Part shown: positions 38,696 to 51,411 of the stretch, piece by piece
How positions within the stretch are numbered: the first letter of the stretch is position 1
Layout of the letters: each line of letters starts with the position of its first letter
DNA from: Escherichia phage W70
DNA: 64,000 bases
Sequence record: OP778610
Strand: one strand, 5' to 3'
Position numbers and translations under genes: made by a program
The notes under the pieces: model-generated
Databases searched by the model: none
What the model was told of the DNA's origin: nothing
What the model saw: only the letters and a program-made list of their open reading frames with translations

Positions 38696-39078
38696 TCGTA
38701 ATTGATCTCCACTTTAACAATTTTACCAGTTTTATCATTGAATACTTCAATGTCATAGTATTCAACAACGCCTTCATCATCAAAAGAACTTTTTTGTTTG
38801 CAAGGTGATACCCAAAAACCGTGGATTACTGCCTCCTCCAGTCCGTCGGTATGTGATACAACACTCAATGTTGGGTAAGGGACCATAATAGGTTTTACCT
38901 CACCACAACCACACGTACAGCAAAATACTTCATCTTCTTCCAGTTGGTACAGTCGCTTTTCTGGAACAAAGGTCAGATGCGCCAAAGGATATTTAGAGAC
39001 GATGGCATTAATATAAGGTTTTCCTGCCAAGCTGTCAATAAATTCATTAAACTCTTTTCTATTTTTTGATAAGCTCAT
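38692..39078 (-). CDS. Cys-rich small protein (possible zinc-binding)
   Basis: 128 aa with CCTCGCG and a further Cys. Confidence 0.45.
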   Translation of the reverse strand: MSLSKNRKEFNEFIDSLAGKPYINAIVSKYPLAHLTFVPEKRLYQLEEDEVFCCTCGCGEVKPIMVPYPTLSVVSHTDGLEEAVIHGFWVSPCKQKSSFDDEGVVEYYDIEVFNDKTGKIVKVEINYE

Positions 39079-39311
39079 CGAGTACCTCCAAAAATATTTA
39101 AAGCTTTAGAATAATCAATGTGACCTGGAACAGTGTGGGCCTCTTGTACAAGGCATTGCCGACAAATACGTGACACAACTGTTGTCTTGATCTCTTCTGT
39201 ATCGTAGAAGCGAGACATTACCTTTGTAACTTGATTGCATTGAGTAATAACAAAATCGTGTTTACAACTTGGTTTGTTTTCTTCAGTTTCTTTCTTTTTA
39301 AAAGGCCACAT
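39075..39311 (-). CDS. zinc-ribbon-like small protein
   Basis: 78 aa with C-x10-C ... C-x2-C spacing. Confidence 0.45.
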   Translation of the reverse strand: MWPFKKKETEENKPSCKHDFVITQCNQVTKVMSRFYDTEEIKTTVVSRICRQCLVQEAHTVPGHIDYSKALNIFGGTR

Positions 39312-39319
39312 GGTGACTC

Positions 39320-39502
39320 CTATTCTTCAACTATTTCGTATTCATCTTTCAAGAGCATAAATTGATAGCCCTTGCCCTTATTCGCAATAATAGTACCAGA
39401 CGCGCTCTCTTTTGTCACGAAAAGAATTGAATCTTTTTGGACACCGTAATACTTAAGTTGCTCAAGCAGTTTGGTCTTTGATTCTAAGATTTTGACTTTC
39501 AT
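39320..39502 (-). CDS. hypothetical small protein
   Basis: 60 aa ORF. Confidence 0.35.
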   Translation of the reverse strand: MKVKILESKTKLLEQLKYYGVQKDSILFVTKESASGTIIANKGKGYQFMLLKDEYEIVEE

Positions 39503-39597
39503 TAGATATCAATTACTACGATTTCAAGCATTGAGTTTTCAACAGCTTCCTTATGTTTTGCTGAGTAAAATTTCATTTAATTATCCTCTCTGCCAGT

Positions 39598-39864
39598 TTA
39601 TAATTTTTCTTTGCCTAAAGTAAGACTAATTTCGAAAGTTTTTGTGATAACTTTATCGTCTTTGTCGAAGAAATCAAATTGGACATAACTCTCGGTCGAA
39701 CTGACAACCAGACCTACAGAGACAGTCCCTTCTGGTACGAGAGCCTTATATTCTTCTTTTAGCACAACGTCGTAAAAATACAACGCTCCACAATAAACTT
39801 CATCCCAACCATCAAAAGATTCGATGAAAGCTTTTTCAATACCAACTAAAGTATTTTCTGACAT
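39598..39864 (-). CDS. hypothetical protein
   Basis: 88 aa ORF. Confidence 0.45.
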   Translation of the reverse strand: MSENTLVGIEKAFIESFDGWDEVYCGALYFYDVVLKEEYKALVPEGTVSVGLVVSSTESYVQFDFFDKDDKVITKTFEISLTLGKEKL

Positions 39865-39887
39865 TATATTATCCTCTTCGTTTCAAG

Positions 39888-40154
39888 TTAGATATAGTCT
39901 ACACCAGCTTGTTCCAACAAGTCAAGCCTTAATTTAAGTTCTTTTTCACGATAGTCGGAAACAAGTTTATCCTTTTTCTTTTCTTCTTCGTCGAACTGTT
40001 CGAGTGGAAGAATACGAATAATGTGCTCTGCCTTCATGTAGGACGTTGATCCGATAAGCTGAACATTACCATTTGGTAACAATCGACCCTTGATCACCCG
40101 ATAACGAGGGAACAAGTCATATTTAACAATCGCGGTAACTGCTAGATTACTCAT
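39888..40154 (-). CDS. hypothetical protein
   Basis: 88 aa ORF. Confidence 0.45.
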   Translation of the reverse strand: MSNLAVTAIVKYDLFPRYRVIKGRLLPNGNVQLIGSTSYMKAEHIIRILPLEQFDEEEKKKDKLVSDYREKELKLRLDLLEQAGVDYI

Positions 40155-40524
40155 GTGTATTCTCCATATCGCGAATTCGATCTTCTACCCAACCACGACG
40201 ATAAATGTTGAGGTAAGATTTACCTTTTGAACCATGATGGGCATATTCGTCAAAATCAAAATCAAAAGGCGTCTCGGTGTTAAGACCCGCATCAAAGAAT
40301 TGATTCTTCATTTCGAATTGCACTTTCATGTCTGGATCATTTTTACCTAAAAATGAAGACAAATTAAAACAAAGGCCAGCACCTCGGTAAAAAGCCCCAT
40401 CTTTTGGTGCACCGATATCTAACCATTTTTTATATTCTCGGTAGAAATTCAGAAGTTGCGGACTGCTTTTCATTTTGTTCTCCTCATTTGTTTTGATAGG
40501 ACTACTATAACATAGTCCTATCAA
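40147..40524 (-). CDS. hypothetical protein, paralogue of 49859-50155
   Basis: 125 aa; shares FY..Y..WLD.GAP......GLC..L...........F.DAGL....PFD with the 49859-50155 product. Confidence 0.5.
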   Translation of the reverse strand: MIGLCYSSPIKTNEENKMKSSPQLLNFYREYKKWLDIGAPKDGAFYRGAGLCFNLSSFLGKNDPDMKVQFEMKNQFFDAGLNTETPFDFDFDEYAHHGSKGKSYLNIYRRGWVEDRIRDMENTHE

Positions 40525-40606
40525 CTTGTATACTATTTAATTAAAGATTTTATGAATGCTTGGTAGGACCCTTCTTTAAATACTCATCTGGATAATAAAA
40601 ATCATC

Positions 40607-40984
40607 CTATACTCCAAATGTGGATTTGATTTCAGCAATAACCTCATGCACATTGTTTTCGTTTACTTCAAATGTGTAGGACGTTGGTTTAAGGAACGTC
40701 TGAGGTGAAACATTAACAAAGAATTCAAATTCATCATTAAAAATTTCAAAGTATTTTCCAGGTGTTGATTCTTGGCTTTTGAAAACAGTACCATCTTCCA
40801 TAGTAACAGAAGAAACAGATTTTTCACCAAGGGTGTATGTTTTTAGCTCGTCAACAACGAAACTGGGGCCGTGGCGACGGAGTATTTCAACCATAGTTCG
40901 GTTAGCTCCACAAATACCAGTACGATTAATAAATAACTCTTCACACCGAGGATTGAGAATATAAGTTTTTCCTACTTGCATCAT
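40607..40984 (-). CDS. Glu/Asp-rich small protein, tandem paralogue 1 of 3
   Basis: 125 aa; conserved VGKTYILNP, HGP.FVV, EDG, E.EF.F, I.EIKSTF. Confidence 0.55.
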   Translation of the reverse strand: MMQVGKTYILNPRCEELFINRTGICGANRTMVEILRRHGPSFVVDELKTYTLGEKSVSSVTMEDGTVFKSQESTPGKYFEIFNDEFEFFVNVSPQTFLKPTSYTFEVNENNVHEVIAEIKSTFGV

Positions 40985-40994
40985 TACAATCTCC

Positions 40995-41354
40995 TTATGC
41001 TAAGTTAAATGTGGATTTGATCAGGTCAATAACCTCTTGTGCGTTGCTCTCCGACACAGATACCTGAATAATTTTAAGGTCGCTGACCTCTTCAAAGTAT
41101 TCGAACTCAGATTCACGAAGTTCAAAGTACATTGCCCCACAGCCCACACTGAATGAATCACACCCTACAGCACCATCTTCTGTTGTGATGTTATTAACAT
41201 ACTCATCACCTTCGATCATGCTCATGTTGTTAACAATAAATCGTGGCCCGTGCTCATCCAGAAAAGAAACAATCTCGTGATTGTAACTTGGGTCAGCCTG
41301 AATAAATTCTTCTACGAGTTTTGGATTAAGTTTATAAGTTTTTCCGACTTCCAT
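40995..41354 (-). CDS. Glu/Asp-rich small protein, tandem paralogue 2 of 3
   Basis: 119 aa; same conserved blocks, C-terminus IDLIKSTFNLA. Confidence 0.55.
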   Translation of the reverse strand: MEVGKTYKLNPKLVEEFIQADPSYNHEIVSFLDEHGPRFIVNNMSMIEGDEYVNNITTEDGAVGCDSFSVGCGAMYFELRESEFEYFEEVSDLKIIQVSVSESNAQEVIDLIKSTFNLA

Positions 41355-41365
41355 CTTTGTTCTCC

Positions 41366-41740
41366 TTACGCCAGGTTAAAGGTAGCTTTAATCAAATCTA
41401 AAGTTTCTTGTGCATTACTACGAGAGACGGCAACCTGAATAATAACAGGGTCTTCATCTTCCCCGACTTCTTTGAAGAAGGGAAATTCACTCTCTGCAAG
41501 TTCAAAGTATACACACTTGTTACCTTCGCAGTCGTGAAAAACGTCACTACCTAAAGTACCATCTTCAAATATGACATTGTTAACATATGCAACATTATCA
41601 TAGAAGTGGGTGGTGTTGACAACAAATTTAGGACCGTGCTTATAAATAAGGTCAACCAATTCTTGATTGTAGCTAGGGTCCATATTGATAAAAGCTTTTT
41701 CTAAGTCTTTATTAAGAATGTAAGTTTTTCCGATTTCCAT
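41366..41740 (-). CDS. Glu/Asp-rich small protein, tandem paralogue 3 of 3
   Basis: Start set at internal MEIGKTYILN (ATG about 41740) with SD gaggag; C-terminus IDLIKATFNLA. Confidence 0.55.
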   Translation of the reverse strand: MEIGKTYILNKDLEKAFINMDPSYNQELVDLIYKHGPKFVVNTTHFYDNVAYVNNVIFEDGTLGSDVFHDCEGNKCVYFELAESEFPFFKEVGEDEDPVIIQVAVSRSNAQETLDLIKATFNLA

Positions 41741-41769
41741 CTTTGCTCTCCTCTTCAGTTGATGGATAC

Positions 41770-41799
41770 ATCTTAGTTGATATAGACATGTCTTGTCAA
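41770..41799 (-). promoter_or_regulatory. sigma70-like promoter (TTGACA, 18 nt, TAAGAT)
   Basis: Between the polymerase terminator and the paralogue array on the - strand. Confidence 0.4.
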
Positions 41800-41809
41800 T
41801 AACTTTTTG

Positions 41810-41843
41810 CACATAAAAGAAAACCACCCTTCGGGGTGGTTTA
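41810..41843 (-). terminator. rho-independent terminator after the DNA polymerase
   Basis: aaaccaccc-cgaa-gggtggttt hairpin followed by a T-run on the - strand. Confidence 0.65.
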
Positions 41844-41848
41844 AATTA

Positions 41849-42148
41849 CTAGTGGCACGCCCCCCAGTTCATCCCTGTGAGGTATTCACCTGTTATGTGG
41901 ACAGGAGATTTCATCATTCGTGCTGCTTGCTCTACACAACGAACAACCATCTCTCCAACTGGACAATACATGATCGTGTAGATTCCATTCTCATCAGGAT
42001 CACACTTAAACTTCCCTTCTTTCACACAATGACCATCCAAGATCATTTTCTTAGCCAAGCAAGCTTCTACAAATTTCTTCGCGTCAGCTTCGTTGTCAAA
42101 GGTCCAGGTCTTCTTGAACTTGTGCGGTACTTCAAGCTGGTATTCATC
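41849..42148 (-). CDS. DNA polymerase (family A), exon 2
   Basis: Begins DEYQLEV (completing motif C HDE with the His that ends exon 1) and ends TGMNWGACH, resembling the T7 gp5 C-terminus as recalled. The Met at 42199 in the ORF track lies inside the intron. Confidence 0.75.
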   Translation of the reverse strand, partial: DEYQLEVPHKFKKTWTFDNEADAKKFVEACLAKKMILDGHCVKEGKFKCDPDENGIYTIMYCPVGEMVVRCVEQAARMMKSPVHITGEYLTGMNWGACH

Positions 42149-42920
42149 CAAAAGTTTAACGAGGTCGTTACTCTCGCCCACATCATTACATGTTGCCATA
42201 CGTTTTCACATATGGATCGGACTATATCACCATCCTTTTCAGGATGCTCCCCATTTCGACGGCACTTGCTCGCCTACGCCTCTCGGCTAGTCTCTGAACG
42301 TTAGGACCATGTGTAGTCACAAGAGATGTGTGTCCAGTTTTTACGGATTTTTATGGACCTTACCACGTTGTAAGGATAACCCATATCCCGAATCTGTGCA
42401 CTTCCATAACCTTGCCCCAGGAAGTTGCAAATCTCTCTAACCTCTTCTTCGGTAACTATACTTCTGGCGTTATCAACCCCTGTTGCTGAACGACATTTAT
42501 CAGCAAAGGTTTTCTTGATATTTCCACCACGAGTTGTCCATTGGAGGTTTGAATAGTGGTTATTCCTTTTGTCAGGCCACTTATGATCAACCTCCGGCAA
42601 ACCTTCAGGGTTTGGTACAAAACACTCTGCCACCAAAACGTGAACAGCCTTTGTAGTCGTCCTTTTGTTGAGATACAGACTTACAATAAGATACCCACGT
42701 CCATTATCAACTGCCGCCATTGGTTTCCCTCGACGACCTATAATGGTCCCGTCTTCATAAACCTTGTAACCGAAATAATCTTTATATTCCACATGATCCT
42801 CTTCGCTGCTGATTAACATAGTCTCATACTAACTCACACTTGAATTAATATCAACCTTAGTCTTCCAGCAATTAAAGGAGTTTTCGATGTGAGTTACCTC
42901 ACAAAGCCACAATGTTACTT
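42149..42920 (-). mobile_element. group I intron with HNH homing endonuclease, in DNA polymerase motif C
   Basis: About 772 nt between ...YYH and DEYQLEV; - strand carries R element GUUCAGAGACUA (42288-42299) and S-like GAUAUAGUCC (42219-42228); 5-prime exon ends in U, intron ends in G. Confidence 0.75.
42301..42819 (-). CDS. HNH homing endonuclease (intron-encoded)
   Basis: 172 aa; AVHVLVAECFVPNPEGLPEVDHKWPDKRNNHYSNLQW is typical of phage HNH endonucleases; sits wholly inside the intron upstream of the R element. Confidence 0.8.
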   Translation of the reverse strand: MLISSEEDHVEYKDYFGYKVYEDGTIIGRRGKPMAAVDNGRGYLIVSLYLNKRTTTKAVHVLVAECFVPNPEGLPEVDHKWPDKRNNHYSNLQWTTRGGNIKKTFADKCRSATGVDNARSIVTEEEVREICNFLGQGYGSAQIRDMGYPYNVVRSIKIRKNWTHISCDYTWS

Positions 42921-45251
42921 ATGGTAATAGATAATACGTCTAACGCCTTCATCATACCAACCTTTCTTAACCAACTGCCAGTGCAGGAGGATACCCACCA
43001 AGTCAAACAGTGCAGCACCACCATTCTGCTGATAAGCATTAAGCAATGAGTGTTTGGAACGAGTGTAGATCTTACGTCCATCAAGACCGTAGATGAATCG
43101 CTTACCGTTAGCTTCCCAAAACTTCTCTAGTGCTTCTTTACGACCTTTCAAGCCGATGTTGCTATCCCAGAATGCGTCGATTACTGCCTGGGCCTTCTCA
43201 AGAGTGATCCCCAGCATTGATGCAATCTTCGCTGCCTGTGCCCCGTACATAATTCCGTATGTCACACCTTTACCTTCACCACGAGAAACCTTCTTCCCTG
43301 CCGCTTTGGTATACGCTTCTGCGTTTCGGGAGTGAGCATCTCCAGATTCCATGATACGAAGATAAGCACCGCCATCGAAATCATAAGCGCCCCATGCTGC
43401 GATCATACCTTCTAGGTTTGAACCGTCGATACCTACCTGATATTTACCCTCAGAGGCTCTGAATAGTTCACGCATCTCTTTACCGAGAAGAACTTTCTCA
43501 TCCGGCTTAGGTACGTTTGCTACGATCGTATGCTTACGACGACCTGTGTTAGTTATTCCACTATAACGGGCCGGAAGTTTACCGTCAACTCGTAGACGTG
43601 GATGGTTAAGCCATCCGGTATCAACCTTCTCTTCTTTCAGCGGGTCAAGAACAGATCGTCGGTTACGTAAAGACAGCCATTTAACAATCTGTTTAGCCAT
43701 TTCACCATCTACTCGCTCAAGGTTAGGGCAAAGACCCTGTTGATCCTTAAGTTGTGGAGATGTAGGTAATGCACGAGCTTTCTTACGGAAAAACTTGAAC
43801 ATCTTTTCTTTATCTGACCACTGCTTAGGTGTGATCGCCAAGCTTTTCAGAATCAGATCACGATACTCCGTCTGATCCAAATCTTCAATGTATTGACGAA
43901 CAATCAGATCAACTTCACTATCGGGACGTTGTTTCTTGAACTGATCTTTAGTTGCATCCTTTGTACGCCAAATTGTTGGGACCCATCCTGCATCACGGAT
44001 CAGGAACTTCTTAACGTCGTCCTGGTTACCAATACGCATCGGAATCATAATGTCCGGCATCTTTTGTTCTTTGATATCCATCAAAGCACGAGCCATATCT
44101 TCCGGCGGCAAAGGAACAAGCCCTTGCTGCTTAACGTTTTGTGCACGGATAAAATCACCCATTTTGGATTCGTCCTCTACACCGTGTTCAACACAATACT
44201 TGATCGCGGCAGCAGTAAGAGATCCGTCAGCCTTAAACGGCTTACTTGGTGCACCTTTAAATTCCAAGGCTTCCCAATTGATATTATAACCTAACTTCTC
44301 TAACCATTTCCAACCTGTACCGGAAAGAGATCCATCACCCTTGAAAGGTTTGGATGGGAATGTCGGTTGTGCTGATTTCGACATCTCTTTCTTCGGCAAC
44401 TTAGGTTCAACCTCTAACTCAATGTCAGTCATCATCTTATCGATACGATCACGAAGCTTGAGTGCTTTTTCTTCATCAAATGAAACACCCTGAATTTCTT
44501 GCTCAATCATCAGGTAGTCAGTCAACATACCTCGACGCAGGGCATTCTTCCAGTTGATCATTTTATACTTCTTCTGATCTTTGTCTGTTTCATCCTTAAA
44601 CATGAAGCGTTTATCATCCGGCATGGATTCACAGGAGATCTCTTTCATCAGAGCATCCCACACCATTTCGTTGATAATTACGTCTTCAATAATACGATCG
44701 CAATACTTCCAAAGTGGAAGGCCACGCCAATCTTCAATCGCCACTTTCTGGTTAGCTACTCGCATACCCCAAGCTTCAAGCCCGTGTGGCCCTACAGGCT
44801 TCATTTTACCTGTGACGGGGTTCTTTACCATCTCAGGACAACCGCGAGGCAGAGGGCGATCTGGATACAATGTACGGGACATTGAAAGTGTATCGAAGAT
44901 GGTTACTTGTTTACCATTGATCGTCCCCATGCAACCAGGGTCTGCAAACATATCGTAAGTTGTTCCTAGCATCTTCTTAAACAACTGGAGGTCATAGCCG
45001 AAGATGTTGTGGATAGCAACTGCTTTAGGCTCGGTAACGAACCATTCGTTTAATTCTTCAAGGGTGCGGATCTTGAAGTTTTTACCTTTAGATTGGATAA
45101 ATTTAACAGCTTGATCGTAACCTTCTCGCTGTGGATCAAGAAAGATGTTCCAGTTATCTTTTTTGTACTCTTTAAACAAGATGCAGTGGATTAGATCAAC
45201 TTCTGTCAACAGACCATTAGCTTCCGCATCTCCAATAAATAAGCCTTTCAT
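42921..45251 (-). CDS. DNA polymerase (family A), exon 1
   Basis: N-terminal exonuclease motif (FIGDAEANGL), motif A-like GIDGSNLEG, motif B RGEGKGVTYGIMYGA; the track ORF terminates at an in-intron stop just after YYH. Confidence 0.85.
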
Positions 45252-51382: not shown

Positions 51383-51411
51383 AGTATAGGGGAGTTTAGG
51401 AGGGGTGTCAA
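51383..51411 (-). promoter_or_regulatory. sigma70-like promoter (TTGACA, 17 nt, TATACT)
   Basis: Near-consensus -35 and -10 with 17-nt spacer on the - strand, immediately after the helicase terminator and before SD aaaggag. Confidence 0.5.

Follow-up and report, generated by a model that had tools for sequence, protein, structure and literature searches.

How a coliphage comes to carry three diverged copies of one small gene in a row, and what these copies do, is the question raised by a locus of Escherichia phage W70 (sequence record OP778610), of which a stretch of 64,000 nucleotides, hereafter called the window, was analysed. At positions 40607-41740 of the window, three consecutive open reading frames (ORFs) of about 120 codons, here named copies A, B and C, had been described from the sequence alone as a tandem triplet of Glu/Asp-rich paralogues behind their own promoter, a pattern likened to that of anti-defence factors (hereafter the original prediction). 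The locus and its flanks are 100% identical to Escherichia phage A73 (OP778609.1, 142 kb, Vequintavirinae; a window coordinate equals the A73 record coordinate plus 1), an rV5-like phage of the recently described genus Septuagintavirus (PMC11370258). The answer to the first part of the question is that A, B and C are tandem paralogues of a known family, that of the Frd.2 protein of phage T4; as to the second part, the evidence points, more tentatively, to acidic proteins acting on partners in the host.

Three tandem copies of Frd.2

The three ORFs are found exactly where they had been predicted, back to back on the minus strand: copy A at 41740..41366 (124 amino acids, isoelectric point (pI) 4.36), copy B at 41354..40995 (119 amino acids, pI 4.14) and copy C at 40984..40607 (125 amino acids, pI 5.03), preceded by the Shine-Dalgarno (SD) sequences GAGGAG, AAGGAG and AAGGAG, respectively. 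Their paralogy likewise holds, far beyond chance, the BLASTP identities being 54% between A and B (E 2e-42), 36% between A and C (E 3e-19) and 38% between B and C (E 5e-20), with 35 invariant columns in the alignment of the three. The proposed common scaffold is present with small variations, as (I/V)GKTYxLN(P/K), HGPxF(V/I)V, EDG and (S/D)EFxxF; its C-terminal motif IDLIKxTFNLA, however, is found only in A and B, as (I/L)DLIKxTFNLA, the corresponding segment of C being IAEIKSTFGV. Divergence does peak in the middle of the proteins, where 82% of the columns differ (residues 37-75), compared to 64% at residues 1-36, 53% at 76-90 and 76% at 91-119. The abundance of Glu and Asp claimed for all three is evident in A (D+E 17.7%) and B (19.3%), but marginal in C (13.6%), the mean over the ORFs of the window being 12.8%; the net charge is -13 for A, -16 for B and -5 for C, with 7-12 Lys+Arg per protein.

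At both internal junctions (A/B and B/C) the TAA stop codon of the upstream gene shares bases with the SD AAGGAG of the next, and A and B are almost the same over about 33 nucleotides around their start codons, an arrangement which fits tandem duplication and translational coupling. In GenBank, copy A is annotated as coding sequence (CDS) A73_101, of 153 amino acids, which begins with a GTG and extends over 41741-41827, across the promoter described below and up to the edge of a terminator hairpin; this start is probably over-extended, since the ATG at 41740, with its SD GAGGAG, agrees with the 123-124 amino acids annotated in four relatives. Plus-strand ORFs overlapping the triplet (e.g., 40779..40964 and 41250..41438) are without support and were ignored, and no RNA family was found inside the triplet in an Rfam scan.

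The description of the locus as tandem, diverged, acidic paralogues is thus sound; what was not visible from the sequence alone is that the family is already catalogued. All three proteins score well above the cutoff of 29 bits of the Pfam family FRD2 (PF03197), with 67.9 bits for A, 73.0 for B and 73.1 for C (133 bits for T4 Frd.2 itself), and all three match phrog_622 (E 8e-22 for A), the same PHROG as T4 frd.2. BLASTP aligns residues 1-126 of T4 Frd.2 with residues 1-121 of A (E 5e-15), 1-116 of B (E 4e-19) and 2-123 of C (E 3e-11); the similarity is full-length and colinear, at 29-35% identity, between acidic proteins of similar length, and extends N-terminally beyond the part covered by the Pfam model. 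Common to both sides are the elements GK.Y, HG..F.V, DG and YFEL..EF..F.EV, as well as N..E.I.LI...F at the C-terminus. The triplet differs from T4 Frd.2 in lineage (Septuagintavirus, in the Vequintavirinae, versus Straboviridae), in location (downstream of the DNA polymerase gene versus between gene 32 and frd), in copy number (three versus one) and, in A and B only, in a C-terminal subtype of their own, ..IIQV.VS.SNAQE..DLIK.TFNLA. The order in the T-even loci examined is gp32 - (frd.3) - frd.2 - frd.1 - frd; that the triplet lies outside this canonical position concerns its context, which is not a requirement for homology. What is new here is an rV5-like E. coli phage that has three Frd.2 copies and apparently swaps them with T4-like phages.

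A word-indexed protein search with a single query found only the query itself, and with the alignment it found eight proteins; for this reason, an exhaustive hidden Markov model (HMM) search was carried out with an A/B/C profile against 1.84 billion cluster representatives. Thirty-one of its 39 matches are single-domain proteins of 85-138 amino acids with one end-to-end match (28 of these being of 112-138 amino acids) and two are two-domain GoF-like proteins; the remaining six (P0014, P0032-34, P0038-39) are long cadherin-type repeat proteins, rejected as false positives matching the YFEL..F segment. A search for related loci with the three-sequence alignment gave three. A tblastn search with copy B matched 506 of 50,697 phage records: five, with at least 90% identity, constitute the A73 clade, and the other 501 show less than 60%, all of those listed being T4-like phages. 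A sequence search of the PDB gave nothing meaningful (E of at least 1), and one of NCBIfam gave no match at all. In two clusters from T4-like phages of Enterobacter and Aeromonas (P0035 and P0037, 225-254 amino acids; the latter reached by the A/B/C profile), some members of which are annotated as 'goF mRNA metabolism modulator', each chain carries two Frd.2/GoF-like barrel repeats, so that tandem duplication of the module is found within single genes as well.

Frd.2 has been grouped with GoF and MotB.1, as T-even early proteins sharing an 'LSm-like' N-terminal barrel (Kim et al. 2025, PMC12152347). This link is reproduced by profile and structure comparison: hhalign gives a probability of 76% (E 2e-5) to T4 GoF and of 54% (E 1e-4) to MotB.1, and a Foldseek search of BFVD returned 51 viral matches, all the named ones from T4-type phages, including GoF of VR7 (E 1.6e-4) and T4 MotB.1 (P39415, E 6.9e-4). 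GoF and MotB.1 of T4, both small, early and non-essential in the laboratory, share with the triplet the homologous N-terminal barrel, the linker and a variable C-terminal part; they differ from it in the lack of pairwise sequence similarity and in their unlike C-terminal domains, and the genetics of goF (suppression of rho-mutant restriction; mRNA stabilisation by the D25Y mutation) has no counterpart for Frd.2.

Predicted fold, selection and descent of the copies

AlphaFold2 models of B (predicted local distance difference test (pLDDT) 91.7, predicted template modelling score (pTM) 0.73) and of C (pLDDT 89.5, pTM 0.69), obtained with a 30-sequence alignment, predict a five-stranded beta-barrel of the SH3/Tudor/FeoA type, in which strands 1 and 2 are separated by two inserted helices. 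The modelled strands span residues 6-9, 38-47, 50-58, 63-65 and 87-90, in the order beta1, the two helices, a beta2-beta3 hairpin, beta4, a long loop, the element YFE(L/I)..(D/E)EF..F.EV, which is invariant across the family, and beta5, followed by a short acidic linker of lower confidence and a C-terminal strand-helix tail; an N-terminal bent five-stranded antiparallel sheet, a linker and a C-terminal part, features of the GoF/MotB.1/Frd.2 group, are all found in the models. The most divergent residues, 37-75, correspond in the models to the beta2-beta3 hairpin and to the long beta4-beta5 loop. The closest solved folds are protein-binding modules, namely the Tudor/SH3-like protein-interaction barrels of the CarD/CdnL N-domain, the UvrD/PcrA C-terminal domain, the Mfd RID and FeoA; no Hfq/Sm protein is present among the 60 fold matches listed, and no known DNA mimic or anti-defence structure among the fold neighbours listed, nor did any show sequence similarity among the matches listed. 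The original prediction had reckoned with a housekeeping fold of known function as counter-evidence; structure prediction and similarity search yielded none, but only a generic SH3/Tudor-like barrel. No recognisable enzyme motif is present in A, B or C.

Five Septuagintavirus genomes of Irish, Ugandan and Chinese origin (A73, UPEC06, LTH01, A5-4 and A7_1) were compared. All five retain the three copies, with intact frames and strong SD sequences, within the first group of small genes that follows the DNA polymerase gene. Between orthologues, the whole-gene ratio of nonsynonymous to synonymous substitution rates (dN/dS, Nei-Gojobori) is 0.04-0.31 across the five phages, and 0.11-0.31 for copy A; the orthologues are under purifying selection, and these whole-gene ratios bear no sign of positive selection. 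The comparison among the three copies, which the original prediction had suggested, could be computed, but with saturated synonymous sites (dS 1.5-2.2) its ratios are unreliable.

In a bootstrapped neighbour-joining tree, A and B are sisters (86%), and their nearest outside relative is the cluster with 'frd.2b' of Shigella phage SP18, at 41-43% identity; copy C, which belongs to another subtype, clusters with the T-even 'HGPSF' subgroup (89% bootstrap). The slot of C is occupied in LTH01 by a different allele of 129 amino acids (dS ~1.8), which clusters with a T-even copy (82% bootstrap) and whose C-terminus is 60% identical to that of T4 Frd.2 over 40 aligned positions, and 79% to that of one T-even copy (L008_c1). 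Tandem pairs of frd.2 are indeed found in T-even phages, namely frd.2a/frd.2b of SP18, a Gaprivervirus, and a pair on the IMG/VR contig L008. Like the triplet, these are adjacent, diverged Frd.2 paralogues in one orientation, and it is in the two L008 copies that copy C and the LTH01 C allele have their nearest relatives; the pairs differ from the triplet in having two members, in lying at the canonical position between gene 32 and frd, and in belonging to T4-like genomes. The GC content of the triplet (0.36-0.40) gives no signal of horizontal transfer in base composition relative to the neighbouring small genes (0.39 +/- 0.03). Taken together, the tree, the LTH01 allele and the T-even relatives show the triplet to be composed of a local duplication, which gave A and B, and of a cassette slot, that of C, the alleles of which are common to T-even phages.

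What the proteins may do

The explanation which we favour, albeit tentatively, is that the triplet may encode acidic, protein-binding modulators of the host nucleic-acid machinery; it is preferred on account of the protein-binding nature of the fold neighbours, the strong acidity, the lack of a catalytic motif and the occurrence of the family in two unrelated phage backgrounds. Published results on T4 are in line with it: mutations in goF suppress a rho-dependent block, GoF(D25Y), unlike wild-type GoF and MotB.1, stabilises gene 41 mRNA (PMC12152347), and frd.2 was the only T4 'Fit' gene of unknown function in a genome-wide CRISPRi-ART knock-down screen (PMC11879866). The host RNA polymerase would transcribe the triplet before or during replication, from a promoter placed after the terminator of the DNA polymerase gene (see below); A, B and C would then act stoichiometrically, by binding a protein partner, and not by catalysis or by RNA binding. 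The likeliest partner would be a host factor that handles nucleic acids, belonging to the transcription, termination or RNA-decay machinery, an immune nuclease being less likely, and the most divergent loops of the barrel would give each paralogue a target or allele specificity of its own. That the C slot is apparently exchanged with T-even alleles implies that Frd.2 works independently of the T4 background, and this indicates a host rather than a phage target. Some points weigh against this explanation. The early timing of the triplet would rest on the consensus promoter and on the analogy with T4. Moreover, a T4 frd.2 amber mutant has an efficiency of plating of ~1 on a laboratory host (PMC12152347), and the score of frd.2 in the CRISPRi-ART screen was weak (0.83, p 0.027; PMC11879866), so that any effect on a housekeeping target would be subtle or conditional. 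The presence in Septuagintavirus, an unrelated lineage, of three diverged Frd.2 copies under purifying selection nonetheless offers a second, genetically distinct system, with natural allele swaps, in which partners may be found for a gene whose place is constant in all the T-even loci examined.

The anti-defence role suggested by the original prediction finds no support in the orthologue dN/dS, in the synteny of the T-even loci or in the fold neighbours, and is in our opinion unlikely. According to it, the paralogues would each be directed against a different immune protein of the host and inhibit it, for instance as an acidic nucleic-acid mimic blocking a restriction or abortive-infection nuclease, and tandem diversification together with cassette exchange would broaden the host range. 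T7 Ocr, T4 Arn and ArdA are acidic DNA-mimic anti-restriction proteins, small, expressed early by the phage and non-essential on permissive hosts; the strong acidity of A and B (pI 4.1-4.4) recalls them, but the charge density of the triplet is lower, especially in C, which is only mildly acidic, and no similarity to them appears among the matches listed. The location of the triplet in a genus-specific accessory region, where other Vequintavirinae (phiTE and SSE121) have unrelated ORFs, the alternative C allele of LTH01, the sharing of subtypes with T-even phages of the same hosts and the tandem pairs of the latter are all consistent with such a role, as is the normal plating of the T4 amber mutant on a laboratory strain; on the other hand, a whole-gene dN/dS of 0.04-0.31 carries no arms-race signal, the gene 32-frd position is fixed and not patchy in the T-even loci examined, and the knock-down of T4 frd.2 had a weak fitness effect in the screening host (PMC11879866). 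A broader version of the idea, which we consider equally doubtful, sees in the Frd.2 barrel a mobile specificity module traded by T4-like and rV5-like coliphages, and in the triplet an array, each member of which would neutralise a different host protein, either an immune factor or a strain-variable component of the nucleic-acid machinery; if it were true, Frd.2 and GoF would found a new class of proteins that determine host range or counter-defence.

The published hypothesis on the family, that is, that an LSm-like barrel binds phage or host mRNA and alters its stability or translation in the manner of Hfq, seems to us distinctly improbable for A, B and C. The strongly bent five-stranded beta-sheet barrel of the models, small as in Hfq/Sm proteins, agrees with it, and so does the stabilisation of gene 41 mRNA by GoF(D25Y), a post-transcriptional effect seen with a reporter (PMC12152347); however, D25Y has been read as a gain of function adding positive surface potential, the reporter did not respond to wild-type GoF or MotB.1, and neither of these two was confidently predicted by AlphaFold3 to form homo-oligomers (PMC12152347). 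In addition, the two helices of the triplet lie between beta1 and beta2, while the Sm helix is N-terminal, Sm/Hfq proteins are not the nearest structural neighbours among the matches listed, and a net charge of -5 to -16 with so few basic residues speaks against RNA binding; the charge and the fold neighbours therefore weaken the LSm/RNA-chaperone idea for this branch of Frd.2. Slightly less probable still is that the proteins are accessory subunits of replication or nucleotide synthesis, docking on a phage component such as the single-stranded DNA-binding protein (SSB), polymerase or dihydrofolate reductase (DHFR), a proposal which rests only on gene neighbourhood: the constant placement of T-even frd.2 between gene 32, which encodes the SSB, and frd/td/nrdA in the loci examined, and that of the triplet after the polymerase gene in each of the five Septuagintavirus genomes, although a fold of protein-binding type would also suit it. 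It is common for small early genes to be dispersed over the replication modules of phages; moreover, the flanking genes differ by lineage (polymerase versus SSB and DHFR), so that the two lineages have no neighbour in common, the family is missing from other Vequintavirinae that have the same polymerase, so that the replisome does not need Frd.2, and three diverged copies are hard to square with a single conserved phage partner. As for decaying duplicates or annotation noise devoid of function, to which only the dispensability of T4 frd.2 in the laboratory (PMC12152347) could lend some colour, purifying selection effectively refutes them, with dN/dS well below 1, confident fold predictions and frames kept intact behind strong SD sequences in five phages from three countries; their probability is negligible.

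Transcription signals and surrounding genes

In the window, plus-strand structural genes occupy positions 1-34167, and minus-strand genes, comprising the DNA polymerase and many small hypothetical genes, follow from 34216 on. Directly after the stop codon of the polymerase gene lies an intrinsic-terminator-like hairpin (41842..41821, minus strand; AAACCACCC-CGAA-GGGTGGTTT followed by a T run, with a 9-bp stem containing five GC pairs), the only one of its kind within 39000-43000, which would end the polymerase transcript; directly after it, a sigma70-like promoter (41770..41799, minus strand; TTGACA-N18-TAAGAT, 10 of 12 matches) is the probable start of the transcription unit headed by copy A. 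The promoter match by itself is weak evidence, since the region holds 13 consensus matches, compared to 10.8 +/- 3.3 in shuffled sequences; across A73, UPEC06 and LTH01, however, the spacer varies but neither hexamer does, and in UPEC06 and LTH01 the stem of the terminator is kept with a loop differing from that of A73, which is the pattern expected of functional elements and makes an upstream promoter, conserved in three phages, plausible. The claim that the triplet has its own promoter is correct insofar as such a promoter precedes it, but this is not private and apparently heads a longer transcription unit: no terminator was found after copy C (within 39000-43000), and in A5-4 and A7_1 the polymerase gene is followed by a different terminator and by TTGACA-N17-TATGAT, then by extra ORFs and only then by copy A. 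In A5-4, a hairpin equivalent to the A73 terminator directly follows the polymerase gene.

In A73, UPEC06 and LTH01 the triplet comes directly after the polymerase gene. In A5-4 (L002, 3124-4075) and A7_1 (L005, 3955-5480), 3-4 small ORFs are inserted between this gene and copy A, of 58, 78 and 141 amino acids, plus one of 167 amino acids in A7_1; the confinement of this variable block to the latter two phages marks the junction downstream of the polymerase gene as a hotspot of accessory-gene turnover. No additional Frd.2-like ORF was found elsewhere in the window, nor at the corresponding place in phiTE or SSE121.

The polymerase gene of A73 is itself split by a 772-nt insertion (42149-42920, minus strand), also present in A5-4 and LTH01 and absent from UPEC06 and A7_1, where the gene is continuous; the blastn junction in UPEC06 falls at nt 2331|2332. 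The Rfam model Intron_gpI matches over its full length at 42930..42197 with 39.7 bits (E 1.4e-7), short of the gathering score of 50, and the insertion contains, on the minus strand, an ORF of 172 amino acids with an HNH_3 motif (42819..42301); most likely, it is a group I intron with a homing endonuclease. In phiTE and SSE121 two sites are interrupted by HNH sequences. GenBank annotates the A73 polymerase as two separate 'DNA polymerase' CDS, and several polymerase orthogroups were counted in the paper describing the genus (PMC11370258).

The gap that separates copy C from the following gene (start at 40473) contains a perfect 12-bp inverted repeat (40493-40524; TTGATAGGACTA-N8-TAGTCCTATCAA), forming a 13-bp hairpin within a 141-nt stretch of -30.8 kcal/mol (z -3.35 relative to shuffled sequences) and overlapping a promoter-like TATACA-N17-TATAGT with a TG motif (40532..40504). 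At its core (ATAGGACTA ... TAGTCCTAT) the repeat is kept in all five Septuagintavirus genomes, regardless of the upstream gene; the outermost TT of the repeat is CG in LTH01 and A5-4, and no U tract follows. It might serve the downstream gene as an operator or as a 5' RNA stem. Farther along the minus strand, at 51383-51411, the sequence TTGACA-N17-TATACT, a second strong promoter match (11 of 12), has immediately before it a GC-rich stretch and a T run (CGGGCGGTTTTTCTA); the same layout as at the triplet, terminator and then promoter, suggests that the minus-strand gene arm is punctuated repeatedly in this way.

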